Counted from the stretch's first letter, positions 1 through 45,132 are shown. The stretch: 64,000 nucleotides of DNA from Spirochaetia bacterium (GCA_049515135.1 JBEKUJ010000007.1:116888-180887); one strand, 5' to 3'. Program-made: numbers and translations. The notes: generated from the sequence alone by a model not told the origin.

Positions 1-2501
1 GGCCCAAGATCTCCCGCCAAGATCGTCTTGTTCTTCAGAAGCCCTTCCACAAACGCGTCCACGAGTACCCCATCAAATTGCGTTCCCCTGTTGCGTGTCA
101 ATTCGTTGACCGCCTGCCCTGGTGACAAGGCTTTCCGATAGGGGCGGTTGCTGGTCATGGCATGGTACGCGTCGGCAATGGCTATGATCCGCGCGAAGAG
201 GGGAATCTGTTCTCCCGCAAGCCGGTTCGGATAGCCCGTGCCGTCGAAGTGTTCCTGGTGGGCGAGGATGATGGAGCTGATTTCCCGGTAGGATTCGAAA
301 TGTCCCAGCAGGTTTGCTCCCAGCTCCGGATGCTTCTTCATGATCTCCCATTCTTCTTCGGTAAGGGGCGATTCCTTGAGGAGGATCCGGTCCGGGATGC
401 CAAGCTTGCCGATATCGTGCAGCAATAGCGACTCTCTCAGCGTTCGGTCGATGAGGATGCCGTGCGCTTCCGCCAGGATGGTGCCCAGGTTGAGAACATC
501 GCGCGAATGACCCGCGGTGTTTGAGTCGCGAATTTCCAAGGATTGCGAGAAGCTCATGCTAAGCTCTTCCATTCTGGCGCTCAACTCGGCTTCCCGGACG
601 AGAGCCTGCTGGAAGTTCCGCATTGTGATTAGGTTGCGGATGCGGGCGTCCAACTCGCGAATGTTGATCGGTTTGGGAAGGTAATCATCGGCACCCTTCT
701 CCAGCCCTTGGATCTTTGATTCGAGCTCCGGCTTCGCCGTGATCAGGATCACAGGGATATGGCGCGTCTTCTCCGTGGACTTGATCCGTTGCACCAGTTC
801 GTAGCCGTCCATGCGAGGCATCATGACGTCCGAAATCACCACGTCTGGAAGTAGAGTTTGGGCCTGCTCCCAGGCGTCCAGACCATCGATTGCCGTAGAT
901 ATCTTGTATCTGAAGCGCACGAGCATTTTGCTGATGTACGATCTGAGATCGGCATTGTCCTCTACGAGCAGGATGCGGTCTGCACGGGCCTGGGACGGAG
1001 TCTCGGCGAGCCGGGGCTCCGCGTCCTTGAGAGCAATCATATCTCTCTCCATGAGCGCCAGATCGTCAACCGTGATCTTGTCGGTTTCCCTCCGGGCCGG
1101 CCATATCTTCTCCTCGTTTTGGTTCTCTGGGACCTGACGACGCCGCTCTTGGTTACGACGATCGATCAGCGCATCAGGAGACAGCTCTTCTAGATTCTCA
1201 GGCAGCTCGACCCTGAATGTCGAGCCCCTCTTTTCTTCGCTCTCGACGGTTATCCGGCCTCGCAGGATCTCTACCGACTCCTTGACTATTGTAAGCCCCA
1301 GACCTGTGCCCTCATATTTCCTGGTGGAGGAGCTGTCGACTTGCTGGAAGGGCTTGAATATGTTCGGCAGATGTTCGGCGGGAATGCCAATGCCAGTATC
1401 CCTGACCTCAAACCACTGAACGTTATCCGCTGCACCTGTCTTAACGCTGATGGATCCGCTTTCCGTAAACTTGATGGCATTCCGGATGAGGTTGGTCAAG
1501 ATCCGTTCGACTTTATATACGTCGATAAATATGGGTTTCAGTCCACCTTCACTGACGTGCCGGAGCTTCAGCCCTTTCCGCTCCGCAACGTCCTGGAAGG
1601 TTGATGCGACGTCCTGCGTCAGCTCGTCCAGATCCGTCTGTTTGAGCCGCAGCTGCATCTTCCCCGCTTCGAACTTCGAAAAATCAAGCATCTGGTTGAT
1701 CATGTCGAGCAGCTTCAGAGTGTTGCGGTACACCTGGCCGATGAGCTGTTTATGCTCTGGAGCCAGGGAGCCCAGGTCGCCCTGATACATGCTCTGGATG
1801 GGGGAGAGAATGGATGTCAGAGGCGTTCGAACCTCGTGACTCACGTTGGCGAAGAACTGGGACTTCAGCAAGTCGAGCTTCCTCAGCTCCTCGTTGGCTC
1901 TGGCGAGGTTGTATCGACCGGTGAACTCGCGAAACCGCATCTGTGTCGCCAGGTGAGAACTCAGGATGACAAGGGCTATTGTGCACAGGAGAAAAAAGTT
2001 GTTGTTCAGGAAGAGAGGTATGCTGGAAATTCGCCGAAGAACAATCATTGGAATAAGATAGGCCGAGTAGACGATCAAGGAGATTATTGATGTTCTCACT
2101 ATGTCCAGCGGCATCATTGCCAGAAATACGATTAATATTGTTATGATGCCCACATAGTAGGGGCTGGCTGGATCGCCTGTAACGTGGACCATGATGTCAA
2201 CAGCCAGGCAGCATATGAGATACTCTGCCATTCCCAACTCTCGTGAGTTGCGTTTGCCGAATTGAGTCAACGTGAGGGCATAGACACCCATGCTCAGAGC
2301 AATAACAATCAGGCGGATTATCGAAAATGCAGGCAGGAATTGACGGTAAACGAAATAATCCAGAAATGAGAAAGCAGGGAATGCGATGCAAGCAGTGATG
2401 GCAGCGAGACGTGCGTCTCGACAAGCCCTGTCAACGGATTCCTTCTTGAACGAATCAATGAGGCTGCGGTCTGCGGTTTTATCCTCTAATTCCTGAGACA
2501 T
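1..2501 (-). CDS. Membrane sensor hybrid histidine kinase with receiver and C-terminal HD-GYP phosphodiesterase domain (3' end beyond window)
   Basis: Manual translation from ATG 2501 (MSQELEDK...), in frame with the codons at base 1. About 6 hydrophobic helices; H-box KSQFFANVSHEVRTPLT; G2 box YEGTGLGL; REC ILLVEDN...PDVVISDVMMPRMDG; HD motif LLHDIGK; HQEHFDGTGYP; ARIIAIADAYHAMTSNRPYR. Confidence 0.9.
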   Translation of the reverse strand, partial: MSQELEDKTADRSLIDSFKKESVDRACRDARLAAITACIAFPAFSFLDYFVYRQFLPAFSIIRLIVIALSMGVYALTLTQFGKRNSRELGMAEYLICCLAVDIMVHVTGDPASPYYVGIITILIVFLAMMPLDIVRTSIISLIVYSAYLIPMIVLRRISSIPLFLNNNFFLLCTIALVILSSHLATQMRFREFTGRYNLARANEELRKLDLLKSQFFANVSHEVRTPLTSILSPIQSMYQGDLGSLAPEHKQLIGQVYRNTLKLLDMINQMLDFSKFEAGKMQLRLKQTDLDELTQDVASTFQDVAERKGLKLRHVSEGGLKPIFIDVYKVERILTNLIRNAIKFTESGSISVKTGAADNVQWFEVRDTGIGIPAEHLPNIFKPFQQVDSSSTRKYEGTGLGLTIVKESVEILRGRITVESEEKRGSTFRVELPENLEELSPDALIDRRNQERRRQVPENQNEEKIWPARRETDKITVDDLALMERDMIALKDAEPRLAETPSQARADRILLVEDNADLRSYISKMLVRFRYKISTAIDGLDAWEQAQTLLPDVVISDVMMPRMDGYELVQRIKSTEKTRHIPVILITAKPELESKIQGLEKGADDYLPKPINIRELDARIRNLITMRNFQQALVREAELSARMEELSMSFSQSLEIRDSNTAGHSRDVLNLGTILAEAHGILIDRTLRESLLLHDIGKLGIPDRILLKESPLTEEEWEIMKKHPELGANLLGHFESYREISSIILAHQEHFDGTGYPNRLAGEQIPLFARIIAIADAYHAMTSNRPYRKALSPGQAVNELTRNRGTQFDGVLVDAFVEGLLKNKTILAGDLG

Positions 2502-2581: not shown

Positions 2582-2857
2582 TCAGCCACTCTTTTGCCTC
2601 ATGAGTCTGTCCATTAGATCGTAAAAATCGCCGACTGACTGAATGCTGGCGAAGAGCGTTTCATCAATCTTGATTCCCAGGGCTTTTTCCAACCGGGCGA
2701 TAATTTCCATGGACATGAGGCTGTCAATACCCAGCTCTTCGCGGATCAGAACGTGATCCTGCAACTCGTTGACATCAATTCGCGAAATCCTTGATACGAT
2801 CTGTTTGATCTCGTTCTTAAGGCTTTCCGGATCGTGCTGTTCTTTCAGATTACCCAT
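2582..2857 (-). CDS. Acyl carrier protein
   Basis: LGIDSL phosphopantetheine Ser motif; ~90 aa; AGGAGG upstream of ATG 2857. Confidence 0.9.
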   Translation of the reverse strand: MGNLKEQHDPESLKNEIKQIVSRISRIDVNELQDHVLIREELGIDSLMSMEIIARLEKALGIKIDETLFASIQSVGDFYDLMDRLMRQKSG

Positions 2858-2872
2858 TCCAGACAAACCTCC

Positions 2873-4264
2873 TTAGTCAACTCTTATGTTCTTTGGAATC
2901 TTATACCCCGCAAGAGTACCGCGCAAGAAGGTCTTGATCTGCTTCACTTTCTCTTCGAAATCAATTTTTCTGCTAAGGCCAAGATTTGCGAAGAGCTCGT
3001 TCCGTTCCCAACCCACGTGAACCTCTGCCACATCCGGGTCTAGCCGAATTGCGCGGGAAACCTCTTCCAGATCCACCATATTGCCGTTTATCTTCCGAGT
3101 TTTCTTTAGCTCTCCGTGAAAAACCAAATGATCTCCATCAAATCGGCCCAGATCCCCGGTCCTGAACCAATCATCATTTTGCGCTTCCTGTGACTCCCAG
3201 CGCCTCCCGTAATACGTTGCACCAATTTGGGGCGCCCTAATCAGGATCTCTCCGACGACGTTGGGTTTGGGCGAATCGATCCGGCATGTCACTCCGTTGC
3301 ACACCGGCCCAACGGTTCCAGCGCGAGCTCGACCGCGGATGTTCCGGCTGACAGGGGCGAACTCTGTAAGGCCATAGCCATGCAGCAGGTCGACAGGAAA
3401 AGCTCTTTTGATGTTCATATAGCTGTCCGCCGTCAGGAGGCTGCCGCCGGAGACAAATACCTTGAGAGAAGAGAGGTCCGCGGAAGAATCGTGCAGCCGA
3501 GCCAGCAGCGAGTAAACCTCTGGAACTGACGTCACGTGATCGATTCGGAGATCTTCTATACAATTGAATAGCTGGCGTGGATGCATGGTGTCAGAAATGA
3601 CACAAGACATTCCATAGAGCAAGGGAACCAGGATGCAGCCCACGAGGGTAAAAATGTGAGCCATCGGGAGAACTGTCAGCATCTTTTCTCCCTTGCTTCC
3701 CTGGAGGCCGTCCTGCAGCACTCTGGCTCCATGAAGATACTGCCCGTGCGTGATCATTGCTCCCAGCGGATACCCGTAGCCTCGATATGTGTAATTGACT
3801 GAGGCTAAATCCGGAGGGATGTCTTCCCTGGGCGGCCCTCCGTCGCCACCTTGGAGCGGGGAGAGTGAACCACTCTCCAAAATGATAACAGTAACCCCTT
3901 TCAGGTATGGCTTCAGGACAGGGATATGGTGTCTTTCCGCAATAACCGCTTCCGGTCGGGCATTCCCGAAGATCTCGTCAAGCTCAAGAGAGCGGTATTC
4001 CATTTTGGCCGGCACGGGAACTGCGCGGACCTGGAGCAGCGCAAGGAGGATTGTGATGAAATCTGCGGAGTTGTTGAGGAACAGGGGAATGAAATGCCCT
4101 TTCCGAACTCCCAAGGCCAGGAGTTGAGCGGCGTACTCTGCGACGCGGCGAAACAACTCCTGCGAGCTAGTTGCAGTAGTCCCGTGCTCGCGATTCACTT
4201 CCAGAAGACACGGACGATCTCCCCAATCGCAGAGTGAGTCAGAGAGCGCTTCGCCAATCGTCAT
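2873..4264 (-). CDS. ANL-family adenylate-forming enzyme (acyl-CoA/acyl-ACP ligase-like) with degenerate motifs
   Basis: GYGLTE and FRTGDLG are conserved; the A3 P-loop reads YTYRGYGYPLGA; ATGA overlap with the upstream gene. Confidence 0.8.
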   Translation of the reverse strand: MTIGEALSDSLCDWGDRPCLLEVNREHGTTATSSQELFRRVAEYAAQLLALGVRKGHFIPLFLNNSADFITILLALLQVRAVPVPAKMEYRSLELDEIFGNARPEAVIAERHHIPVLKPYLKGVTVIILESGSLSPLQGGDGGPPREDIPPDLASVNYTYRGYGYPLGAMITHGQYLHGARVLQDGLQGSKGEKMLTVLPMAHIFTLVGCILVPLLYGMSCVISDTMHPRQLFNCIEDLRIDHVTSVPEVYSLLARLHDSSADLSSLKVFVSGGSLLTADSYMNIKRAFPVDLLHGYGLTEFAPVSRNIRGRARAGTVGPVCNGVTCRIDSPKPNVVGEILIRAPQIGATYYGRRWESQEAQNDDWFRTGDLGRFDGDHLVFHGELKKTRKINGNMVDLEEVSRAIRLDPDVAEVHVGWERNELFANLGLSRKIDFEEKVKQIKTFLRGTLAGYKIPKNIRVD

Positions 4265-7200
4265 CTGATTTCCTTTGTTGAGGGACTCTGAAGAAGTCCC
4301 CCCTGGGGGGAGGGGCTGTTATACCTTTCACCTTGTTTTTCTTTTCTTGCAATTGCGATCTGCGCCTGTGGTGGATTGCCCATTGCATTTTGAATCTCTA
4401 TTTCGCGGAAGCCGGCAAAGGACAGCAAGTCCCGTAGCTCTTCGGCGGTGTGAAACCTGAAGAATCCATCCTCTTCCAGCTCGAACAGACTTGCTGCTTC
4501 GTTAAGCATCCCTAATGCGCCGCTCACCCCCGCCTCTTCATTCCTGGTTTTACCCTCGTCGCAGTCCTGTTTCTGCAGTTTTTTGATGAAGTTTATGAAA
4601 ATCTGGGAAATGTCGCCGTCGGGCTTCATTGATGACATGATCAAGAGCCCTCCGGGTTTCAGCATCCGATAAAACTCTGCTACCGCGTACCGGGGATTGA
4701 AGATGTAAGAGATGAACAGGCTTGCAACGATCCTCGTGAAATGGCTGTCGGGGAATTGAAATCCAAGGTTCCGGTCATAATCGCCGAAGTTCAAAGCATT
4801 GAATACCAGGTCGCTCGTGCGAAGCGCATCCGTGGGGAGTCCTTTCGATCCTCCCTGCGGTTGTATATCTCCATCCTCGACTCGATGCGCAAGGAACCGG
4901 GCCGCGCGGTTGAAATCCAGTACGGCAGGCAGATCACTGCTGTCAAGCATTGTTTGGAGGTGGGAGACTGTTTCAGCTGAGGGGGCCCCGCCTCGTATGA
5001 ACGCATACAATTCGGAGGATTCGCATCGCATAAGGCGGTCCAGGGTTGCGTTCGAAAGCCCTTCGACCTTGCCTCTGAGGAAATCGAAAGTCTGGGATCT
5101 CGACCGTATGAAGTCCGTAACGGGAATGAGCCGGTTTGGCTCAAGGTTCCGCTGGATATACTGCATCCGGAGGCCTCGAAGAACAGGGTTTTCCACGATC
5201 AGGCGCTCGCATTTTGCCCTCGTCTTGTCCAAGGCCTCCTGCACGAGATCCACCGCAGTTATTTCATGCTCGGCTTGGAGTTTTCCGTTGTGAGCGAGGG
5301 TATCCAACAGTACTTCAAGGAAAATACCTGTTCCACATCCGAGATCTGCAATGATCTCCCGATCGTTCAGTGCCAGACTCTGGACTTCAGATCTCAAGAA
5401 GGCTGTGAACTCTTCGATGTTCCTATAGAAATCATAGCCGACGCTGCTTCTCTCATTCCCGATAAGGTAGTCTCGCCAATACTCGGAAATCAGCGAGATC
5501 GGTCTGCCCTGCAATCGCTCCCGCTCATTGGTCAACAGGCGTACCATGTCCTCTCTGCAGGGGTCGCGAGGAACGATGCGTACTCCCTGCAGCTTCTCGT
5601 AGATGAAGCCCGCCATCAGCTTGAAGGTCTGAATGGCGTCGTTGCTTGTGCGGAGGTTGTGACCTGTCGGAATTTCAAGAAGCTCACGGCTTCCGCCGGC
5701 GCTGACGGACATGAGGTCTGAGACTTCCTCCTGGTCGATCCACTTGTCAAACCGGCCGTAGATCCAAAGAACAGGAATCCCGATCCGTGACATATCGAGT
5801 CGCGCGTCCGTCACATACGCGTATTTCTCCTCCACGAGATCGTGCGCGGTGCGGTCCATGTCGACAAGATGGCCCAGCAGCCCCAAAATGCCGTTGGGAA
5901 TCCCCGTGCGATAATTGCTGATGACATCGATCCCGCCAAGGACATTTCGAAGGGTTGATTGCGCCGAAGGCGCCCCCATGCAGCTGATCCAAAGCACAAT
6001 CCCGCTCTCTTGCTGAAGGGCTAACAGCCTGCGGGCCTCGATGGCGGACATGCTGAAGGTTATAAGGATTACTTTCTTGGCAGTGAAATACGGATTGTTG
6101 CGAGCAAATGATAGCGCCGCCTCAAGGTCATCGAGACCCTGGCCCCACCGATACGAAAGCATTTCGTAACCGCGCTTCAAGTTGATCTCGTCTTGATGGC
6201 TTTCCCCAGGCCGATTAATTCCATCGTAACGCAGGACGGCAAGCTTCCCGCTATATGCCCAGAAGCTTGCAAGAAGCGTGGCCACAAGGGGAGAGTAGGC
6301 TTCCTTTTTTTTCCCATAGGCTGGCGGAATGATGATTACAGGCGCTTCGACCGATAGCTCAGTAGCATTGATCAGTCCGCAAATCTCTTGCCCTTTCGAA
6401 TTGGCAAAACGAACAAGGACGGATTCAATGGGTCGCGACGGCCCCTCCACACTGGCCTGGTAGGGCATCTCCCGCTCCCATTCATCACCATCGATCCTGC
6501 GGGTGGGGGTCACCCTGCGCGCGATCCCTGCCTCGATTCCGATCTGCAGTCGGATACCCGAGGGTGAGGAAAACGCTTTTATATGTCGGATTTGTCCAAA
6601 ACAATCAAGCCCAAGTCTCTCGTCGGCGATGTAGCGCACGCCTTTCCCCTGCTGAAAGAAAGCCTGACAATCGGGCGAGACGAGAATCTCGCAGAGAAAC
6701 CCCCTGCGGCTGATGTCGATCAAGGGCCCGCGAAACGTTCTCTGCGGACACTCCTCTGCCGAGATGGTGATATCCAGACCGGAGTCTGCGTGAAGGAGTT
6801 TTCTCTGGTAGGAGCGGCTGTCCGACCTCAGGACTAACGCTGGCAGATGGAAGGACGGGAGGTCCGCGCGAGAATCGACTGCCTCCGTCATGAAGAAATA
6901 GCTGTTTCCATTCCACGAAAAAGTGAAGTAAACCGCTCGTCCGGCCATGGTCCCTGCCGACGTAGCCTCATGAGTCAACGTGATCGAGAACTCACGCCGG
7001 TCTTCATTCACCTCAACGATAGTATGCTCCTGAACCGTCAACGAGCTGTCCATCAAAAGGCTGAGGGGAACGCAATGCACCTTCAGAGATTGAAGCGTAC
7101 GAGTGATCTGCTCGGAATCATCAATGCGATGCTCCTTCGCCAGTGGTAGTGCCTCCAGGTGATGGTGCAGGTTGCGGATGGTTCCCCCCATTGAGCGGTC

Positions 7201-7842
7201 CAAGACCAGATTCCTCAGTCGGCGTTCCTCCAACTCTGTCATGCGGGACAATCGGACGCCGGCAGTTCGAGTCCTTCGCAATGCATCATCGATTACATAC
7301 ACGACCTTGCCCTGCAGTCGGAGAGGACGAGGGTCGCCGGGAATGGTAATGCTCAGGTGCAGGAGATCCTCCGCCTGTAATCTGCCGACATAGCTCAGCA
7401 GGAGGCCGTCAACGGAAAGGTTTTCGATCGAGAGGATTTGAACTTCTCGCCTGTCGGTTGAAACGTCCTCAATGTGGCAGGAGGTGCGAGGGAGGTTGCG
7501 AGAATCTCCCTGCTTTCGTTGCAGTTCCTGAATGAACTTATCCACAAGAAGGAGCTGGCTCCCTGCTCTTGCAAGGAACTCAATTCCAAGGAAACGATCT
7601 TCCGAGTCGCCCCGCGCGTGGTTTCGAACTAACCTGCAAGGCAGCTGGATTCGTTCGCCTGATGCAGGGATGGTGAATGCGATGCTGTGAATTGAATCGT
7701 AGGACGCGGGCACTCTTACAACAACCTGTATGCCGGTCCGGCTGATGTCCACCGAAGCGCCCGAGATGGTTCCGGCTTCAGTGGCGATTTCAACAATTCC
7801 CGTGTGACGGATGCGAATCTTTTTTCGTTTTTCCGGCTTCAT
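4261..7842 (-). CDS. Multidomain protein: 3 PilZ domains + LuxD-like alpha/beta hydrolase + class I SAM methyltransferase
   Basis: PilZ motif pairs RKKIR/DISRTG, RNLPR/NLSVDG, RSYQR/DISRRG; hydrolase IIIPPAYG...LRYDG...ITFSMSA...TGHNL; MTase IADLGCGTG and EFYRMLKPGG. Confidence 0.8.
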   Translation of the reverse strand: MKPEKRKKIRIRHTGIVEIATEAGTISGASVDISRTGIQVVVRVPASYDSIHSIAFTIPASGERIQLPCRLVRNHARGDSEDRFLGIEFLARAGSQLLLVDKFIQELQRKQGDSRNLPRTSCHIEDVSTDRREVQILSIENLSVDGLLLSYVGRLQAEDLLHLSITIPGDPRPLRLQGKVVYVIDDALRRTRTAGVRLSRMTELEERRLRNLVLDRSMGGTIRNLHHHLEALPLAKEHRIDDSEQITRTLQSLKVHCVPLSLLMDSSLTVQEHTIVEVNEDRREFSITLTHEATSAGTMAGRAVYFTFSWNGNSYFFMTEAVDSRADLPSFHLPALVLRSDSRSYQRKLLHADSGLDITISAEECPQRTFRGPLIDISRRGFLCEILVSPDCQAFFQQGKGVRYIADERLGLDCFGQIRHIKAFSSPSGIRLQIGIEAGIARRVTPTRRIDGDEWEREMPYQASVEGPSRPIESVLVRFANSKGQEICGLINATELSVEAPVIIIPPAYGKKKEAYSPLVATLLASFWAYSGKLAVLRYDGINRPGESHQDEINLKRGYEMLSYRWGQGLDDLEAALSFARNNPYFTAKKVILITFSMSAIEARRLLALQQESGIVLWISCMGAPSAQSTLRNVLGGIDVISNYRTGIPNGILGLLGHLVDMDRTAHDLVEEKYAYVTDARLDMSRIGIPVLWIYGRFDKWIDQEEVSDLMSVSAGGSRELLEIPTGHNLRTSNDAIQTFKLMAGFIYEKLQGVRIVPRDPCREDMVRLLTNERERLQGRPISLISEYWRDYLIGNERSSVGYDFYRNIEEFTAFLRSEVQSLALNDREIIADLGCGTGIFLEVLLDTLAHNGKLQAEHEITAVDLVQEALDKTRAKCERLIVENPVLRGLRMQYIQRNLEPNRLIPVTDFIRSRSQTFDFLRGKVEGLSNATLDRLMRCESSELYAFIRGGAPSAETVSHLQTMLDSSDLPAVLDFNRAARFLAHRVEDGDIQPQGGSKGLPTDALRTSDLVFNALNFGDYDRNLGFQFPDSHFTRIVASLFISYIFNPRYAVAEFYRMLKPGGLLIMSSMKPDGDISQIFINFIKKLQKQDCDEGKTRNEEAGVSGALGMLNEAASLFELEEDGFFRFHTAEELRDLLSFAGFREIEIQNAMGNPPQAQIAIARKEKQGERYNSPSPQGGLLQSPSTKEIR

Positions 7843-7978
7843 TGGAAGCACTACCCGACAGCCATTCTATAAGGACTCTTCCATGCGGTCAACGATGACG
7901 CTACTTTCGGATCAAGCCAAATCCAGGAACGCTCATGGCAAGGAACCGTCTGGATTGTGTGACTCGCCAATCGGCAGT

Positions 7979-9322
7979 ATGATGCTCACCATGAGCAGCA
8001 AGCTGAAGCGAATATGCCTGATTCACCCGAAACGGGCTGTCTGGTCCAGGAACCCGACGATCACGCAGGCATTGCAAGAAAGTCACCGTCACCTGAGGGC
8101 TTATTCCGCCCCACCGCTAGGTCTGTTGACGGTTGCGGCCTTGACCCCCGCCGATATCGAGGTCGAGTTGATACTGGAAGATTTCGCTCCTATTGACTAT
8201 GACCCGAACTACGACTTGGTTGGCATTTCTGCCATGACACACACGGCGCAGCGAGCATACCAGATAGCAGGGGAGTTCAGGGCCAGGGGAATATATGTCG
8301 TTTTCGGCGGTATTCACGCCACAGTAGTGCCGGAGGAAGCTTCACTCCACGCGGATACAGTTATCGTTGGTGAAGCCGAGGAGCTGTGGCCCCGTTTCTT
8401 GCAGGACTTCAGGAACGGCGAACCGCGCAAGATCTACAGGAATCCTTCGGGATATCGTGTCGACCTTGGGCTTTCACCTGTTCCGAGGTACGATCTGTTA
8501 AAGGGCAAAGCGGCGCAAGGGGACCCTGACTTCTACTATAATCTCGTTCCTGTCCAAGTCAGCCGCGGATGTCCACACGGTTGTGATTTCTGCATCGTCA
8601 CGGACATTTACGGGAAGAAGCCTCGAAAAAAATCCATCGACCAGGTAAGGGCAGAAATCCTGTCTATCAAGCACTATCTTCCGAACCACATCGTCGGGTT
8701 TGCGGACGACAACATCTTCATCGACCGCCAATTCGCGAAGGATTTGCTGCTGGAGGTTGAGAAGCTTGGCATCCGGTGGGTCGGCCAGTCCGACATCTCC
8801 ATCGGCGCGCACGATGAGCTTCTCGAGCTCATATACAGGAGTGGATGCCTCTTCCTGCTGGTTGGGTTCGAAAGCCTGGATCCACAGAATCTGACCGGCA
8901 TGAACCCTAATAATTGGAAACTTCGGCAGCTGGAGAAATATGAGAAAAACGTTAGAAATATCCAAGAACACGGAATCATAGTCCTCGGTTCATTCATCAC
9001 GGGTCTGGACAACGATGATAAAGGAGTTTTCGGGCGAATTGTGGACTTCATGAACCGCAACAGGATTACCGGAGACCTGACGTTCGCAACGCCCCTGCCC
9101 GGCTCGAGATTGTTCGAGCGAATCAAGCGTGAAGGCAGGTTTCTCTACCCTGAGCCATTCTGGGATCGCTGCACCTTCTTCGACGTCATCTTCAAAATGA
9201 AGAAGATGAGCAAGGTCGATGCTGAGGAGGGAATAACCTGGGCCTACCAGCAGATTTCAAATGAAGAAGCTTTCAAGAACCGGGCAGCGTATCTCAAGGA
9301 GGTGTACAAGAGGCTCGCTTGA
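7979..9322 (+). CDS. B12-binding-domain radical SAM protein
   Basis: SRGCPHGCDFC CxxxCxxC motif; N-terminal PPLGLLTVAA...GGIHAT...GEAE pattern. The start is uncertain (7979 or 7991). Confidence 0.85.
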   Translation: MMLTMSSKLKRICLIHPKRAVWSRNPTITQALQESHRHLRAYSAPPLGLLTVAALTPADIEVELILEDFAPIDYDPNYDLVGISAMTHTAQRAYQIAGEFRARGIYVVFGGIHATVVPEEASLHADTVIVGEAEELWPRFLQDFRNGEPRKIYRNPSGYRVDLGLSPVPRYDLLKGKAAQGDPDFYYNLVPVQVSRGCPHGCDFCIVTDIYGKKPRKKSIDQVRAEILSIKHYLPNHIVGFADDNIFIDRQFAKDLLLEVEKLGIRWVGQSDISIGAHDELLELIYRSGCLFLLVGFESLDPQNLTGMNPNNWKLRQLEKYEKNVRNIQEHGIIVLGSFITGLDNDDKGVFGRIVDFMNRNRITGDLTFATPLPGSRLFERIKREGRFLYPEPFWDRCTFFDVIFKMKKMSKVDAEEGITWAYQQISNEEAFKNRAAYLKEVYKRLA

Positions 9323-13689: not shown

Positions 13690-14673
13690 GTGAGCAATCA
13701 CATGGAGAAGGAGTTGGAGACAGTAACGAAAGAACAGGGGCTGAACCGAGGCCATGACAGGCTCCTTGGCGAGCTCGGAGGTATCCGCGACAGGTACCGA
13801 TTCGACGTGAAGCAATTCATAGAGTTCGTGAAGGGCAGGAGACTATTTATCGTGGACGGGCTCGAACAATATGCCAGGTGGCTGGATGTGGGGGGCAACG
13901 GCAAGAGGTACTCGCCGGCGACCATCAACAGGAAGATCGCGGCCGCGAAGAACCGTATCCGCTATGCCTTCCGGCACAGCGATTATGCGGCGGATTTACG
14001 AAAGAGGTATCAGCTGGAAGATGTACTGAAGTCGGTGCGGCTGAAGAAGGTCGATTCCCTGCCTGTGTCCCCGGACAAGCTCTTGGACGTGAACGAAGCC
14101 AGGCTGCTTGTCGAACGCACAAAGGACAGCACCGTCAGGTTGATGGCAATGTTTCTTGTCGGCACGGGCGTCAGGGTGTCTGAGATGCTGGGAATACTAC
14201 TCACGGACATCAAGGTCGGGAAAGGCAATTTTGCGGAGGTGAAAGTGATAGGAAAGGGATCGAAAGAGAGAGCGATCCACGTCAAGAAAGAGCTCATAGA
14301 GCGCATCAGGAAGCACTTTCACGGTACGACCCGACTGTTCGAGCATCAGGGCAAGCCCTTCAATCGCATATCCGTCACCAATCGTATCAAGCACGAAGCT
14401 CTTCGGACGATAGGAAGGGAAGTGACCGCGCAGCAGCTTCGACATACCTGGGCTGCAATCCAGATTCAGCGGGGCAAGGATATTCAGGCTGTTGCGGCTG
14501 TGCTGGGACATGCGGACCCCGGGGTCACCGCGCGGATGTATGCACGCACCAAGCTCGCGCCGCAGGAAGCCTTCCTGGACTTGGAGGAGAAGGGGCCGGC
14601 AGGTCATGAGAAGCAGACTGTGGCGTCGGCCCCTTCCGGGAAAAGGGGGTTCGCGGTCAAAGGCTTTTCATGA
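13690..14673 (+). CDS. Tyrosine recombinase/integrase
   Basis: TGVRVSE (Arg), GKGSKER (Lys), QQLRH (HxxR with His to Gln), LGH, TARMY (Tyr). Confidence 0.9.
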   Translation: MSNHMEKELETVTKEQGLNRGHDRLLGELGGIRDRYRFDVKQFIEFVKGRRLFIVDGLEQYARWLDVGGNGKRYSPATINRKIAAAKNRIRYAFRHSDYAADLRKRYQLEDVLKSVRLKKVDSLPVSPDKLLDVNEARLLVERTKDSTVRLMAMFLVGTGVRVSEMLGILLTDIKVGKGNFAEVKVIGKGSKERAIHVKKELIERIRKHFHGTTRLFEHQGKPFNRISVTNRIKHEALRTIGREVTAQQLRHTWAAIQIQRGKDIQAVAAVLGHADPGVTARMYARTKLAPQEAFLDLEEKGPAGHEKQTVASAPSGKRGFAVKGFS

Positions 14674-16709: not shown

Positions 16710-17150
16710 TGCTGCCAACCAAGGCCTTGTCTTTGTGCCTGAGACCCTGGGCAAACTCCACGCTGATGTAGCAAAAGATGGGAAAGGATCACTTCGGTTG
16801 GATCATACCCATTTACTGAAGATGGTTTCGGGCTACATCAAGAGAATCGATCCGCTCACCGGTGAGGATCTTCATGGCGGTCCTCGATGCAGAGTTCGAG
16901 ATTGTCAGCACATCCCGGGAGCTCCCCGGCTGAGAGCGCTGCATCGGGCATTTCACCGATGCCAGCATGGTGCCGTGTCCGACGGGGCGGACCGCTCTTC
17001 CGCCGGTTTCGCTCGGCGCGGAAAAGGGCTACCTTCCAATTCATCCGTGGGAAGCCATGAAAGGACCCGGACGCGCATTCCGGGCGCGGAAACTCACAGG
17101 CCTCTTCAGCGCCCAGCTCTCTGACACCCGCCAGACCGCGGTCTGGCGCG

Positions 17151-17363
17151 GTGTCGGTGTCGTCCGCCTTAGCGGTCATCGGGTTGCCTCACCCATCGCG
17201 TTGGAAGCTGCCGCCGATATCGCCTATGGGCTCGCCGAGCAGCGCAGCATCGACGACCATGCGACACCGCGCCGCGACGGCGGACGCGGAGCCTCGCATC
17301 GAGAGGCTCCCGCCGGGTACCCGGATCTCATGTCGCATCGACAGCTCCCAAGGAGATTTCTGA
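17151..17363 (+). pseudogene. C-terminal remnant of a NarX-type histidine kinase
   Basis: MRHRAATADAEPRIERLPPGTRISCRI resembles an HATPase C-terminus; its stop overlaps the regulator start. Confidence 0.45.
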
Positions 17364-18169
17364 TGGTAAGGCCCGTCACGTTTCTCGTCGTCGACGATCA
17401 TCCCGTGTTCAGGCAGGGCCTCGTCGCCCTCATCAGGAGCAACAAGCGCTACCATGTATGCGCTGAGGCAGGCACTGTGGCCGAATCCCTTGCGGCGCTG
17501 GAGAAGGCGGTACCTGATATTGCACTCGTGGACATATCACTCGTAGGCCAGAACGGTCTGGATCTTGTGAAGACACTGAAGTCGGCGCATCCCGAGGTGC
17601 TGGTGCTTATCATTTCCATGCATGACGAGGTCATCTACGCGGAGCTGGCGCTGAAAGCGGGGGCCAGGGGCTACATGATGAAGCAGGAAGCTGCCTCGGT
17701 CATGCTGGACGCCATCGAGACGGTGATTTCCGGCAATATCTATGTTTCCGCCATCATGCGTGACAGGCTCCTGGAAACGATGTTCAGCCGTCGGGAGGGA
17801 GTCGAGGCAACTTCAGTCTCGCGCCTCAGCGACAGGGAGCTGGAGGTGCTGGAGCTGATGGGGCAGGGCTATGGCGCGGCGGAGACCGCGAAGGCGCTGA
17901 ACCTGTCGGTGAAGACGATATATGAGTACCGCGACCATATCAAGGAGAAGCTCCAGATCGTGGGAGCAGGAGCGAGCGCGCCTGCGCCATCAGAAGCCTA
18001 CCCTACGTCGGAACCGGCTAGAATCGGACAAAGGTCGAATTCCCAAATAGGTTGTATTACCTATCCCGCTCTGCCCAAACAAGTGGTACAAAAACCAGGG
18101 GCAGGTCACAATTGTATTCCAGGTAAGCCGCAAGCCTTTCACGGAACGTTCTTGGCGGAACGTTCTTGA
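17363..18169 (+). CDS. NarL/LuxR-family response regulator, C-terminus disrupted
   Basis: LVVDDHPVFRQGL, PDIALVDISL, LSDRELEVL...NLSVKTI. Homology ends at KEKLQI (~17960), then the frame reads into unrelated sequence. Confidence 0.75.
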   Translation: MVRPVTFLVVDDHPVFRQGLVALIRSNKRYHVCAEAGTVAESLAALEKAVPDIALVDISLVGQNGLDLVKTLKSAHPEVLVLIISMHDEVIYAELALKAGARGYMMKQEAASVMLDAIETVISGNIYVSAIMRDRLLETMFSRREGVEATSVSRLSDRELEVLELMGQGYGAAETAKALNLSVKTIYEYRDHIKEKLQIVGAGASAPAPSEAYPTSEPARIGQRSNSQIGCITYPALPKQVVQKPGAGHNCIPGKPQAFHGTFLAERS

Positions 18170-19753: not shown

Positions 19754-22447
19754 TCACAAGCACATCCGAAGTCTCTCGCAAAGAGCCAGAGCCTCGGCGT
19801 GCGGCAGGCAGTACTGCATCTCCGTAAACTGTTCGCGGAAACGCGAAACCTTATCCCGCACATCTCGACCGTTCAGGATGACTTCCTCCATAAACCCGGC
19901 TAGCTCGGTGAAATCCTTCGGCCCCATTCCAAATCGGGTCATCTCCTGGACTCCCATGCGCAGACAACTTGCAGCTGTGAAGCTTTCGTCGTCCGGAGCA
20001 GCCTGGTAGTTGACGATAATGTTGTTCGCTTCGAGGGCTTCTGCCACTAAGGGTCCCTTGCCGTATCCAACACGTATAATTACCTGATGAGTCTCAGTGT
20101 ATCCCGCTCGTGGATCTCCTTCGACGGCTAATCCAGCATTCTTCAAGGCTTTGGCGAATGCCTTTGCATTCGTGATTACCGCCTTCTGGTATTCGGACTT
20201 AAAAGCATTCATCTCGTACGCGGCCATCAGCAAGCCGACAAGAGTGCCAAGGTGGTGGTTGCTGACACTTCCCGGGAAGACCCGCCTCACAATTGCGGCC
20301 CATAGAGCTTCCAGATCACTGCCGGTAGACATGTTGCTCGCAATAAGACCTCTTTGCGGCCCGAAGAAGGTCTTGTGGGTTGAGCCTGTCACAATGTCCA
20401 CGCCTTCCATGAACGGTTGCTGGAAATCAGGCCCGAGCAGACCCAGAACATGTGCCGTGTCATACATAAGGATTGGGCGAGGGGCCATATTTGTGATCAT
20501 TTTTGAGATCTCTGAAACCGGTTCCCGGTACAGGGTCATGCTCTTGCCTAGAATAATAAGCTCCGGCTTGTGAAGCCAGATCAGCTCTTCTGTACGAGGC
20601 AAATCTATATTGTAGGGATTTTCCCGAAGCATGGGAAAAGGGATCACAGCCGGCCTATCCGTTGCAGGATCTATAGCGACGAAGGACCGAAGCGCGCCCA
20701 TCGGTTGGGCACTTAGGTGTCCACCGCGGCTAAGGTGATGATTCATCACCTTGCGGAGTCGGCGTGGCTCAGCTTTCCTGTCCATTCGGTTGAGATAGTC
20801 GACGAGGCCGCCAAAAACCGCTGTGTTGGCCATCTGGCCACTTATAGTCCTCAATTCAACCTCAGAGCAGCCGAGATAGGCAGTAAGCTCTGCCACTAAC
20901 AGTTGCTCCAACTCTTCGATCATCCGCGTTCCCTGGTAGTAAAATATCTCCTTCTCCCCCAAGGACGCCATCGCACGGTGTTCGGCGTACCGGTGAGATG
21001 CGTCCGTAATGGATAGCCACGAAACGAGAGGGGAGACGGTTTGCTCTGAAGGGATAAGGTTTATTGTTTGCCGCTGTCGCCAGATTGTGTTCTGCACAGT
21101 CTTTTCTACAAGAAGCTCCGCCGCCATAGAAAGTCCTATTGCAGGGCTTCTCGTTGATTGACATTTTGGCTTTACCAGAACCGGCCTAGCGTACGGGGGT
21201 GCCGCGCTTGAGAGATGCCGCACCACGATCACGGCCTCAAGAGTGCGCTCGCTCTGCTTTATCTCCAGAGTCTGCCCCGCCTCAAGGGCGGCGTCGAGAT
21301 ATGCCAAGGCAATCGCCCGCATCCCCTTCTCTTCGGATGGTACCGCGAACAAACCTTGGCCTGTGAAATTCCAATAGGGAACCATGGTGCCACTGGTCAC
21401 ATGGCCGACAAGACGACTCCCGACAAAAACTTCATACCCCTGACGCGCTATTCCGGGGCCGGTCATGGCGACAGGAACTATGACTTTCCTCAGAGTGTCC
21501 GTTTGTCCGGAATGACAGCCCTTGTGCTCTGCCCTCCTCTTCAGTTCTTCCTTCTGCCTTAACAGCGCGGCCCGTCCAATGAAATCGCCCTTTTCGGAGG
21601 AGAAGCTGACAGCCGTCACAGTCGAAGGGGCCGCGAGGATGGGGATGCCTTTCCCTTCTCTGTCTGTCCCAAGTTCGTGCCCAAAGAGGGGAAGGCCAGC
21701 CTCGAGGCGCAAAGTGTCCCGGGCGCCCAGCCCCACTGGAGCCACGCCTTGACTTGCGGCGAGGATCCTCTCCCAGACTAAGACCGCCCTCTGCGCCGGC
21801 AGAAACAGCTCGAAGCACAAGGGTTCCCCGGTGTAGCCCGTGCGGGAGACCGTCAAGGGAATGTTTTCTCCTTCGATGCGGCACTCCCGCAATCGGTTTC
21901 TCCAGGGATCTGGGAGAGCAATCAGCCCCTCTTCGAGAATAGACCCCAAGACACACTTGGCGGAAGGACCCTGCAGGGCGATCATCGCAAGCTCTTGACT
22001 AGCATCTTCGAGGCTGACCGCATCAAAGCGGGACTTCAGATTGTTGAGCCAAACCCAGTCCTTCTCTACGTTGGACGCGTTGACTACCAGGAGAAAGTTC
22101 GGTTCTTCCTCCGCGAGTCCATCATCCAATCGGTACAAATAGGCATCATCCACAGCGCACCCGTTCTCGTCGGGAATCACCGTATATTGAGCCATTCCAG
22201 AATCGAGGCCGGCGCAATTATTCGTCAGCGCGTATTGAAGAAATCGTACAGCATCTTTACCACGTATGGCGAAACGCCCCATGTGTGAGATATCAAAAAG
22301 TCCAGCGCTTCTGCGAGTTGCCAAGTGCTCCTGAAGAATCCCCGCTGCGTACGCTACTGGCATATCCCAGCCGCCAAACTCTACCATTTGGCCGCCATGA
22401 TTCCGGTGCCAGGAGTTGAGGACCGTCCTCTTCAAGGAATCACTCAT
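19754..22447 (-). CDS. GcvT aminomethyltransferase fused to a serine hydroxymethyltransferase-like domain
   Basis: FGGWDMP, LFDISHMG, SRTGYTGE, GLGARDTLRLEAG, then INLIPSE, GGHLS and GSTHKTFFGPQRG (PLP Lys), all in one 897-aa frame. Confidence 0.9.
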   Translation of the reverse strand: MSDSLKRTVLNSWHRNHGGQMVEFGGWDMPVAYAAGILQEHLATRRSAGLFDISHMGRFAIRGKDAVRFLQYALTNNCAGLDSGMAQYTVIPDENGCAVDDAYLYRLDDGLAEEEPNFLLVVNASNVEKDWVWLNNLKSRFDAVSLEDASQELAMIALQGPSAKCVLGSILEEGLIALPDPWRNRLRECRIEGENIPLTVSRTGYTGEPLCFELFLPAQRAVLVWERILAASQGVAPVGLGARDTLRLEAGLPLFGHELGTDREGKGIPILAAPSTVTAVSFSSEKGDFIGRAALLRQKEELKRRAEHKGCHSGQTDTLRKVIVPVAMTGPGIARQGYEVFVGSRLVGHVTSGTMVPYWNFTGQGLFAVPSEEKGMRAIALAYLDAALEAGQTLEIKQSERTLEAVIVVRHLSSAAPPYARPVLVKPKCQSTRSPAIGLSMAAELLVEKTVQNTIWRQRQTINLIPSEQTVSPLVSWLSITDASHRYAEHRAMASLGEKEIFYYQGTRMIEELEQLLVAELTAYLGCSEVELRTISGQMANTAVFGGLVDYLNRMDRKAEPRRLRKVMNHHLSRGGHLSAQPMGALRSFVAIDPATDRPAVIPFPMLRENPYNIDLPRTEELIWLHKPELIILGKSMTLYREPVSEISKMITNMAPRPILMYDTAHVLGLLGPDFQQPFMEGVDIVTGSTHKTFFGPQRGLIASNMSTGSDLEALWAAIVRRVFPGSVSNHHLGTLVGLLMAAYEMNAFKSEYQKAVITNAKAFAKALKNAGLAVEGDPRAGYTETHQVIIRVGYGKGPLVAEALEANNIIVNYQAAPDDESFTAASCLRMGVQEMTRFGMGPKDFTELAGFMEEVILNGRDVRDKVSRFREQFTEMQYCLPHAEALALCERLRMCL

Positions 22448-44691: not shown

Positions 44692-45132
44692 GTGACTATG
44701 GAGACCTTGATCCTTCCAGCCAGCCTCGATTCCCTCGCGGTCATACGGAAGCACGTGCAGACTGCGGCCTCCGATGCCGGATTGGAGAAAAAGGATTCGT
44801 ACCGGCTCCTGCTTGCCGTCGACGAGGTGGCAACCAATATCATCACGCATGGCTACCTGGAAACCGGCATTGATGGCAGGCTCGAGGTGAGAGCGGAGGT
44901 CGATGGCGAGCACCTGACGATCGCCCTGGGCGACTCGGGGCCGGCATTCGATCCGACACAGGTTTCGGAACCGGATGTCAATCAGCCGGTGGAGGATCGT
45001 AAGGTCGGAGGCATGGGCCTCTACCTGGCGATCCGAAACGTGGACCAGTTCAAGTACCAGCGCGTGGGAGATCAGAACAGGAACATTTTCATCATGAATC
45101 GAAAACACATGCACTCCGGAGGCAGCGGATGA
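44692..45132 (+). CDS. Anti-sigma factor / Ser kinase (RsbW/SpoIIAB-like)
   Basis: LAVDEVATNII; D.G..FDP; GGMGL. Confidence 0.9.
   Translation: MTMETLILPASLDSLAVIRKHVQTAASDAGLEKKDSYRLLLAVDEVATNIITHGYLETGIDGRLEVRAEVDGEHLTIALGDSGPAFDPTQVSEPDVNQPVEDRKVGGMGLYLAIRNVDQFKYQRVGDQNRNIFIMNRKHMHSGGSG

Follow-up and report, generated by a model that had tools for sequence, protein, structure and literature searches.

In a 64,000-nucleotide stretch of DNA from a Spirochaetia bacterium (GCA_049515135.1 JBEKUJ010000007.1:116888-180887; hereafter the window), a gene at positions 4261-7842 on the minus strand encodes one protein that joins PilZ modules (PilZ-PilZ-xPilZ/PilZ), a LuxD-like hydrolase and a split S-adenosylmethionine (SAM) methyltransferase. 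An earlier note on this DNA had proposed three PilZ domains, a LuxD-type hydrolase and a split methyltransferase in a single polypeptide, and all of its structural calls held under hidden Markov model (HMM) searches, profile comparison, fold comparison and conservation; we are highly confident of the domain assignments. A single open frame, 4261-7851 on the minus strand, gives 1196 residues when read from a GTG, and residue numbers below follow that count. An in-frame ATG at 7842 (residue 4), where the earlier note had placed the end of the gene, gives a product of 1193 residues. The ATG is the likelier start, because the ESM Atlas record begins there and a 98% identical homolog, P0002, is 1193 residues long; the GTG at 7851 agrees less well with both and was set aside. 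The host is a peat-soil spirochaete, and the gene is present as a single copy in its 4.5-Mb genome. Upstream, a divergent intergenic region of 148 nt contains a sigma-70-like promoter match, TTGACC-17-TAGAAT, at 7864-7892 on the minus strand; it agrees with the consensus at 10 of 12 positions and is a pattern match only. Metagenomes of peat, soil and wetland from four further studies (P3-P6), not counting two runs that may be the source, also contain DNA nearly identical to 2582-7851 (at least half of the sampled words); no RNA run that contains it was listed.

The N-terminal part of the protein carries three PilZ motif pairs, RKKIR9/DISRTG35, RNLPR118/NLSVDG144 and RSDSR342-RSYQR346/DISRRG379. 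When the residues of the protein were shuffled 20,000 times, and a pair was counted as RxxxR followed by [D/N]hSxxG 20-40 residues apart, one pair was obtained 758 times, two pairs 15 times and three or more never; the three pairs are therefore beyond chance. PilZ domain 1 (residues 7-93; 7573-7833, minus strand) and PilZ domain 2 (residues 118-217; 7201-7500, minus strand) score 37.2 and 35.3 bits against Pfam PilZ (PF07238), above its gathering cut-off of 22.5 bits in scans of isolated pieces, and the second also matches TIGR02266 at residues 142-216. Across 42 aligned full-length homologs (39-70% identity), the motifs of the three modules are intact in 40, 41 and 39 sequences, respectively. 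The three RxxxR/(D/N)xSxxG pairs described earlier are all present. The third module is composite. A profile built from the 42 sequences matches PP4397 (2gjg, E 9.5e-5; 3kyf, E 1.1e-4), with profile positions 249-432 aligned to chain residues 18-208. We take PP4397 to be a YcgR-like protein of two domains, PilZN and PilZ. The match indicates that the third unit consists of a divergent PilZ-like N-domain (residues ~232-340; 6832-7158, minus strand) and a PilZ domain (residues 341-452; 6496-6831, minus strand), with the RxxxR motif in the linker, RSDSRSYQR342-350; the YcgR-like N-domain that had been suspected ahead of the third PilZ is supported by both the profile match and this linker. R346, R350 and G384 are invariant among the aligned homologs. 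Neither Pfam PilZN (PF07317) nor PilZNR (PF12945) was found in residues 231-454 at E values up to 10, and no Pfam family matched the N-domain, which we therefore regard as an unclassified xPilZ variant. Judging by these motifs, the PilZ sites of the fusion protein probably bind cyclic di-GMP (c-di-GMP).

The hydrolase domain (residues ~475-770; 5542-6429, minus strand) was defined by AlphaFold2 (AF2) modeling, Foldseek, phmmer and conservation. The isolated piece, residues 455-775, was modeled with a mean predicted local distance difference test (pLDDT) score of 91.4, and the first Foldseek match in the PDB is LuxD (1THT; E 8.9e-16, TM 0.73/0.79), followed by an uncharacterized hydrolase, the thioesterase DcsB, feruloyl esterases, the CurM thioesterase and monoacylglycerol lipases. 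LuxD is also the best match when the piece is compared by phmmer with all PDB sequences (E 7.6e-4). The motifs LRYDG540 and ITFSMSA597 are both present as the earlier note had read them, and the latter, an elbow that departs from GxSxG, aligns with that of LuxD (LIAASLSA on LITFSMSA). The same alignment places LuxD positions 114, 211 and 241 on S600, D702 and H731, which are invariant in 42/42 homologs and intact in 142/145 representatives of the superfamily described below. D211 and H241 presumably complete the triad of LuxD. Its Ser114 is the acylated nucleophile that unloads acyl-ACP (PMC6279958, in the part available to us), ACP being the acyl carrier protein. The expected LuxD-like fold and Ser-Asp-His triad are thus borne out, with LuxD first by sequence and by structure and with S600/D702/H731 as the candidate triad by alignment. 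Acyl_transf_2 (PF02273), the Pfam family of LuxD, appears in the precomputed annotation of some homologs, and P0207 scores 28.5 bits against it. No lux family was found among the scanned neighbors (ligase, ACP, kinase and radical-SAM genes).

The remainder of the protein is occupied by the methyltransferase. Motif I, DLGCGTG836-842, is present and, together with the acidic residue D868, intact in 42/42 homologs; the methyltransferase motif is intact in 141/146 superfamily representatives. Pfam divides the domain into two matches, Methyltransf_25 at residues 834-883 (profile 1-43) and Methyltransf_11 at residues 1032-1072 (profile 55-95), the second with 40.7-44.2 bits against a cut-off of 21.2. 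For the METHYLTRANSFERASE, the AF2 model of residues 776-1165 (pLDDT 86.2) has Rossmann strands at residues 833-837, 863-868 and 895-900; a helical stretch of about 137 residues follows, and after it come strands at 1038-1043 and 1064-1072 (58-62, 88-93, 120-125, 263-268 and 289-297 in the numbering of the model). Since the strands stop at residue 900 and resume at 1038, the insertion measures ~137 residues (residues ~901-1037; 4741-5151, minus strand) and lies between Rossmann strands 3 and 4. It separates an N-terminal half (residues ~815-900; 5152-5409, minus strand), assigned from Methyltransf_25/31 and the AF2 strands, from a C-terminal half (residues ~1038-1165; 4357-4740, minus strand), assigned from Methyltransf_11 and the AF2 strands. 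The earlier note had motif I split from the later motifs by more than 100 residues, which the model and the divided Pfam match both bear out. P905, R907, P910, G931, G954 and A983/R985 are conserved within the insertion. Motifs, model and fold comparison all identify a SAM methyltransferase of class I, into which a conserved, lid-like set of helices is inserted.

How the PilZ modules might act on the enzyme was approached by modeling PilZ3 (residues 236-452) against the catalytic core (residues 475-1165) with c-di-GMP included. The complex scored 0.66, and the best of three controls 0.21. This score counts as a pass; the mark was reached by 58/80 solved complexes and 2/110 mismatched pairs, a calibration that is rough here given our own alignment and the ligand. 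Contacts agreed between runs to 80% or more, with a pLDDT of 76 for the partner. In the confident interface, PilZ3 residues 317, 341-348 (the RxxxR linker), 383 (in DISRRG) and 440-452 face residues 642-649, 678-688 and 711-727 of the hydrolase. The third of these hydrolase segments sits between D702 and H731, and the methyltransferase lies outside the interface. The model supports, short of proof, a defined packing of the predicted c-di-GMP-binding face of PilZ3 on hydrolase loops near D702/H731.

The fusion gene, a ligase gene, an ACP gene and a kinase gene lie on one strand and overlap or abut. The start of the ANL-superfamily (AMP-binding) ligase gene (2873-4264, minus strand; 463 residues; Pfam AMP-binding 3.6e-53) overlaps the stop of the fusion gene by 4 nt. 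The P-loop of the ligase reads YTYRGYGYPLG, versus YTSGSTGRPKG in the closest structure, 8wev, and the protein ends right after YKIPK, ~23 residues short of the end of 8wev. What is missing is presumably the A10 lysine region in the nomenclature of these enzymes. Both the atypical P-loop and the short C-terminus are conserved in 41 ANL orthologs of 430-506 residues. The ACP gene follows (2582-2866, minus strand; 94 residues; Pfam PP-binding 8.9e-14) and has a DSL serine motif. The hybrid sensor kinase (1-2501, minus strand; 840 residues, with the last seven codons beyond the start of the window) has a ~6-TM (transmembrane) sensor followed by the Pfam domains HisKA, HATPase, REC and HD-GYP, and its HD-GYP motifs, HDIGK and HFDGTGYP, are intact. 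The host can make c-di-GMP, as its genome contains 14 GGDEF matches; it also contains nine PilZ matches.

On the other side of the fusion gene lies a divergent gene for a B12-binding radical-SAM enzyme (7991-9322, plus strand; Pfam B12-binding and Radical_SAM). Its listed open reading frame (ORF) starts at 7811 and would overlap the fusion gene; the in-frame ATG at 7991 gives 443 residues, the usual ortholog size, and is the probable start. This gene is the best match within its own genome to the in-operon radical-SAM gene of a related locus, L047 (E 5e-111, 42% identity), with seven paralogs at 1e-65 or weaker. It is therefore a relocated ortholog, and a loss of the radical-SAM gene from the host genome was ruled out. 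Another contig of this genome carries five paralogous B12-binding radical-SAM genes within ~10 kb, all in the same orientation (G000:C27:2665-12483). Genes of mobile elements stand on both sides of the region. A phage-integrase-family gene lies at 13690-14673 (plus strand), ~6 kb from the cassette; ~2.4 kb past the kinase gene, outside the window (L058:7184-9530, minus strand), are a gene for an IstB-like ATPase and an ORF that resembles a transposase and matches the C-terminal part of Mu transposase. The window also contains a REC-GerE response regulator (16967-18169, plus strand), an 897-residue ORF that joins GCV_T (glycine-cleavage T-protein) and SHMT domains (19754-22447, minus strand) and a REC-GAF-SpoIIE (PP2C phosphatase) protein (45129-47069, plus strand).

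Related loci were collected using one genome per species. Of the 56 found, L056 and L057 were weak, methyltransferase-only matches and were left out of the counts. By record titles and Atlas summaries, the only source of taxon labels here, the other 54 comprise 46 labeled as spirochaetes, four as Desulfobacterota, two as 'Eubacteriales' and two unclassified. Six full-length relatives (L013, L018, L020, L025, L035 and L050) fall in Desulfobacterota or 'Eubacteriales' bins, where gene transfer or mis-binning is possible. Neighbors were counted by ORF clustering at loci with enough downstream sequence. An ANL ligase gene lies downstream on the same strand in 41/43 loci and an ACP gene is found in 38/40, both lacking in L008 and L042; an in-operon B12 radical-SAM gene is found in 31/36 (lacking in L011, L028, L030, L042 and L053) and the kinase-REC-HD-GYP gene in 29/32 (lacking in L028, L042 and L053, with partial kinase matches by tblastn in L028 and L053). 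The cassette thus usually has five genes, encoding the fusion enzyme, the ANL ligase, the ACP, the B12 radical-SAM enzyme and the membrane-sensor kinase-REC-HD-GYP protein. In most cassettes the ACP and kinase genes enclose the radical-SAM gene, which at the present locus and in L053 is found upstream, in divergent orientation.

Database matches to the whole protein number at least 263 clusters, of which the best 120 have 827-1328 residues, mostly ~1160-1220, at 39-98% identity; those with a source name are called 'PilZ domain-containing protein', 'UbiE' or similar. Of 301 genomes sampled evenly from the same phylum, seven, including the present host (G000), have the hydrolase-methyltransferase pair (E<=1e-30), and they fall in 2/126 genera. 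The possibility that separate PilZ, hydrolase and methyltransferase genes were joined by assembly or annotation might draw on the short homologs of 160-650 residues in the databases. The full-length architecture recurs without internal stops in the 54 independent loci, from different assemblies, and at least 120 database proteins match at 86-100% coverage of the query; on this recurrence we reject an artefact, the chance of which is practically nil. A search for shorter homologs gave 61 matches of some 160-650 residues, nearly all of them fragments on contigs of roughly 1-9 kb, and therefore no evidence for natural splitting; naturally split forms found no support. Two matches of 654 residues lie on long contigs, including the copy in L053, for which clustering had given only a shortened frame.

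The catalytic core has a wider distribution than the fusion. An exhaustive phmmer search with residues 455-1196 gave 758 representatives (50% clustering) with a threshold of E<=1e-3, of which 335 also pass E<=1e-30, and domain HMMs from our own alignment were applied to 146 of them. The length ahead of the hydrolase falls into classes: 30 residues or fewer in 9/146, which are core only and some of which may be fragments; 100-139 residues in 3/146; 185-286 in 64/146, with a total length of ~820 residues; 334-416 in 43/146; and 459-509 in 27/146, including the present protein. Read from these sequences, the hydrolase-methyltransferase core occurs with zero, one, two or three PilZ modules. In P0072 a REC domain apparently precedes the PilZ modules; a REC match in P0284 is weak and below the cut-off. 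The ~820-residue class, the one-PilZ clade, has a Pfam PilZ match at about residues 115-200 and an unsplit methyltransferase, the insertion being absent and the Methyltransf_11 match contiguous. In 25/25 of its members R116, R120, D146, G151, S384, D486 and H515 are invariant. ESM Atlas labels, a lead only, place relatives in Nitrospirota, Myxococcota, Verrucomicrobiota and Omnitrophota besides spirochaetes.

These distributions bear on whether the PilZ modules regulate the enzyme at all. They might only localize it, make it oligomerize or recruit partners, with or without c-di-GMP, and leave it constitutively active. The core-only forms would fit, as they imply that the core can work without PilZ, and C-terminal helices of PilZ domains are known protein-interaction elements (10.1101/814665, in the part available to us). 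Against such a role, the residues for c-di-GMP are conserved in the three modules and in the 25 aligned members of the one-PilZ clade, the RxxxR linker and the DISRRG loop both belong to the hydrolase interface of the complex model, and the operon includes an HD-GYP gene. We consider modules without a gating function quite improbable.

The one-PilZ clade was followed at 80 metagenome loci (L059-L138). Here, no ligase, ACP or radical-SAM gene was found in the cassette position, with one ligase-like and one radical-SAM-like hit elsewhere. A gene for an MMPL-family transporter (~750 residues) directly follows the enzyme gene in 21/36 eligible loci (for example L060, L087, L108 and L124). Lipid export is the role for which MMPL proteins are chiefly known. 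The link to MMPL is limited to this clade; the host genome has four MMPL matches, none adjacent to the cassette. A ~930-residue kinase is encoded downstream in 16/20 eligible loci, with HisKA-HATPase-REC, a second HATPase and no HD-GYP. An HMM of the N-terminal 205 residues, made from 30 kinases of the spirochaete clade, matched 18/18 kinases of the one-PilZ clade at full length (E 1e-12 to 1e-31), which indicates that the same membrane sensor accompanies the enzyme in both clades. This ~205-residue, ~6-TM domain matched no Pfam family, in the kinase at 1-2501 on the minus strand (L058:11979-14501) or in those of L059-L138. Other neighbors in this clade are an upstream gene for a kinase/deaminase-like protein of 335 residues (25 loci) and one for a Trans_reg_C-AAA_16-TPR regulator (22 loci).

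An exporter and a membrane-embedded sensor kinase as neighbors raise the possibility that the system remodels membrane lipids under c-di-GMP control, the hydrolase acting on (lyso)glycerolipids and the methyltransferase on a head group or chain, for example by N-methylation of phosphoethanolamine; the chains may differ. Consistent with this, the fold neighbors of the hydrolase include monoacylglycerol lipases (7ozm, 6eic and 7l50; E ~1e-11), and phosphoethanolamine and phosphatidylethanolamine N-methyltransferases (5wp5, 3uj7 and 8ys9) are among the top fold and profile matches of the methyltransferase. The methyltransferase matches are, however, generic Rossmann matches (TM 0.19-0.39), and LuxD stands ahead of the lipases in the sequence comparison as well as in the fold comparison. 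Moreover, the conserved trio of ligase, ACP and radical-SAM enzyme points to carrier-protein chemistry, and the sequence of the fusion protein showed no membrane segment on inspection, although no dedicated search was made. We regard lipid remodeling as unlikely, while keeping it in view.

Carrier-protein chemistry could also run in the order of BioC, the malonyl-ACP O-methyltransferase, and BioH, the pimeloyl-ACP methyl ester esterase. The carboxylate of an ACP-bound dicarboxylate would be methylated first, the chain would then be processed by elongation or by the radical-SAM enzyme, and the hydrolase would act last, as a methyl-ester esterase. BioC is the best methyltransferase equivalog in NCBIfam (E 3.9e-7), BioH is among the weak matches of the hydrolase, some homologs are named 'pimeloyl-ACP methyl ester carboxylesterase', and the cassette includes an ACP gene. 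Yet both scores lie far below their equivalog cut-offs (BioC TIGR02072, 30.1 versus 184.95 bits; BioH TIGR01738, 11.2 versus 206.95 bits), and the match to BioC is confined to generic motifs at residues 1032-1077. The hydrolase is closest to LuxD, an acyl-ACP acyltransferase, and the one-PilZ clade has an exporter in place of an ACP. An enzyme pair working in this order is, in our judgment, a doubtful prospect.

We favor an enzyme gated by c-di-GMP in which an acyl group is first unloaded and then methylated. c-di-GMP would bind the RxxxR/DxSxxG sites of the PilZ modules, and binding at the PilZ3 linker would reposition this module on the hydrolase, change the access to or the geometry of S600/D702/H731 and so switch substrate entry. 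The LuxD-like domain would take an acyl group from acyl-ACP onto S600 and release it, as LuxD does; the acyl source could be the ACP of fatty-acid synthase, as for LuxD, or the cassette's own ACP. The fused methyltransferase would then methylate the released product, most simply by converting a carboxylate to a methyl ester. In spirochaetes, the ligase, the ACP and the B12 radical-SAM enzyme may re-activate and tailor the same acyl chain, which recalls the hand-over from LuxD to LuxE. The local concentration of c-di-GMP to which the enzyme responds would be governed by the operon's membrane-sensor kinase-REC-HD-GYP protein. Acyl release and methylation gated by c-di-GMP are consistent with the ANL and ACP neighbors, the HD-GYP phosphodiesterase gene of the operon, the MMPL gene beside one-PilZ relatives and the complex model. 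For the chain of steps as a whole, including a c-di-GMP level set by the operon's HD-GYP protein, we put the chances at about even.

Several observations weigh against this proposal. With the Pfam models named in the earlier note, PilZ was recovered in modules 1 and 2 and the methyltransferase was found, and PilZ 3 (residues 346-436), scanned alone, reached 14.9 bits, under the cut-off of 22.5. Acyl_transf_2 fell exactly at its cut-off of 20.3 bits on the isolated hydrolase (profile positions 100-221 of 294) and below it, at 16.7 bits, on the whole protein, and the LuxD equivalog NCBIfam NF052253 scored 14.9 bits against a cut-off of 420. Because other esterases, monoacylglycerol lipases and polyketide synthase thioesterases come closely behind LuxD among the structural matches, the hydrolase may act on either thioesters or oxyesters. 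For the methyltransferase, Foldseek gave no specific structural relative, only generic class I enzymes (E ~1e-6); as these mix N-, C-, O- and S-methyltransferases, the methyl acceptor is a guess. The degenerate P-loop and short C-terminus make the ANL protein uncertain as an adenylating loader. Since no ligase, ACP or radical-SAM gene was found near the genes of the ~820-residue clade, these proteins are not essential partners of the core. Finally, part of the modeled contact (residues 440-452) is expected in any case, because the two chains are covalently joined 22 residues apart.

The protein would be a PilZ-controlled enzyme with a new output, already present in databases and unstudied. In the published literature, searches that combined PilZ with methyltransferase, hydrolase, thioesterase, ACP, MMPL and LuxD, supplements being outside their scope, found no PilZ-hydrolase-methyltransferase fusion and no such cassette. 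The earlier note had called a PilZ effector that is itself a lipid-modifying enzyme unusual; this stands insofar as no published description was found, and does not insofar as the protein is no singleton and its family has hundreds of members in databases. A survey of PilZ proteins lists polysaccharide synthases, secretion proteins, flagellar brakes, chemoreceptors, transcription factors and signaling domains as outputs (10.1101/814665); in the part of it available to us, the word 'hydrolase' is absent and the only 'methyltransferase' is CheR, with MapZ. If our proposal is true, direct control by c-di-GMP extends to acyl or lipid metabolism, and the conserved pairing with a sensor kinase and HD-GYP or with an MMPL exporter would form a compact module of signaling and chemistry. 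Because the family is large, one biochemical characterization would annotate many genes.

Among known systems, YcgR and PP4397 resemble the third module in having a divergent N-domain, an RxxxR linker and a PilZ barrel. They differ in that the module here is not stand-alone, has no link to flagellar genes and matches neither PilZN nor PilZNR. The cellulose synthase BcsA also has its c-di-GMP receptor within the enzyme polypeptide, and its active site is allosterically gated. The PilZ domain of BcsA packs against the catalytic domain (10.1101/814665, in the part available to us). BcsA, however, is a membrane-embedded glycosyltransferase with one C-terminal PilZ domain, whereas the present protein looks soluble and has three N-terminal PilZ modules, a hydrolase and a methyltransferase. 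In MapZ-CheR1 of Pseudomonas aeruginosa, c-di-GMP likewise acts through PilZ on a SAM methyltransferase (10.1101/814665, same part); there, a CheR protein-glutamate methyltransferase is regulated in trans, and here PilZ is fused and PilZ3 is modeled on the hydrolase. BioC and BioH also pair a class I methyltransferase with an alpha/beta hydrolase on ACP-bound chains, in line with the weak NCBIfam matches, but the present locus has no biotin context and its hydrolase is LuxD-like rather than BioH-like.

The phcBSRQ system of Ralstonia is similar in operon logic alone, with a methyltransferase for a putative fatty-acid methyl ester beside a membrane sensor kinase. In the part of the account available to us, PhcB is a methyltransferase that makes methyl 3-hydroxymyristate, PhcS is a sensor kinase and PhcR has receiver and kinase domains (PMC8578825); the kinase of the one-PilZ clade, HisKA-HATPase-REC with a second HATPase, has the domain set of PhcS and PhcR together. 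The same part mentions no PilZ, LuxD-like domain, HD-GYP, ACP or radical-SAM protein, all of which are present in the system described here. By analogy, the core might make a lipid methyl ester that diffuses or is exported and acts as a signal, in the manner of the PhcB autoinducer, with the co-inherited 6-TM kinase as the receptor of this signal and, in the spirochaete version, REC-HD-GYP lowering c-di-GMP and the three PilZ modules reading its level; we think this improbable. If it were true, one operon would close a feedback loop between cell-cell signaling and c-di-GMP, and we know of no described circuit of this type.

The closest comparison remains LuxD, the myristoyl-ACP thioesterase/acyltransferase of Vibrio harveyi (1THT). 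Identity is ~16-17%, no lux operon is found here, the PilZ modules and methyltransferase are fused to the hydrolase, and the partner belongs to the ANL superfamily and not to the LuxE family. The two are nonetheless alike in their elbows without GxSxG (ASLSA in LuxD, FSMSA here) and in a similar spacing of the triad. LuxD hands its released acid to an ATP-dependent synthetase (PMC6279958, in the part available to us), and beside this hand-over stands the fact that the next gene at the present locus encodes an ANL enzyme.

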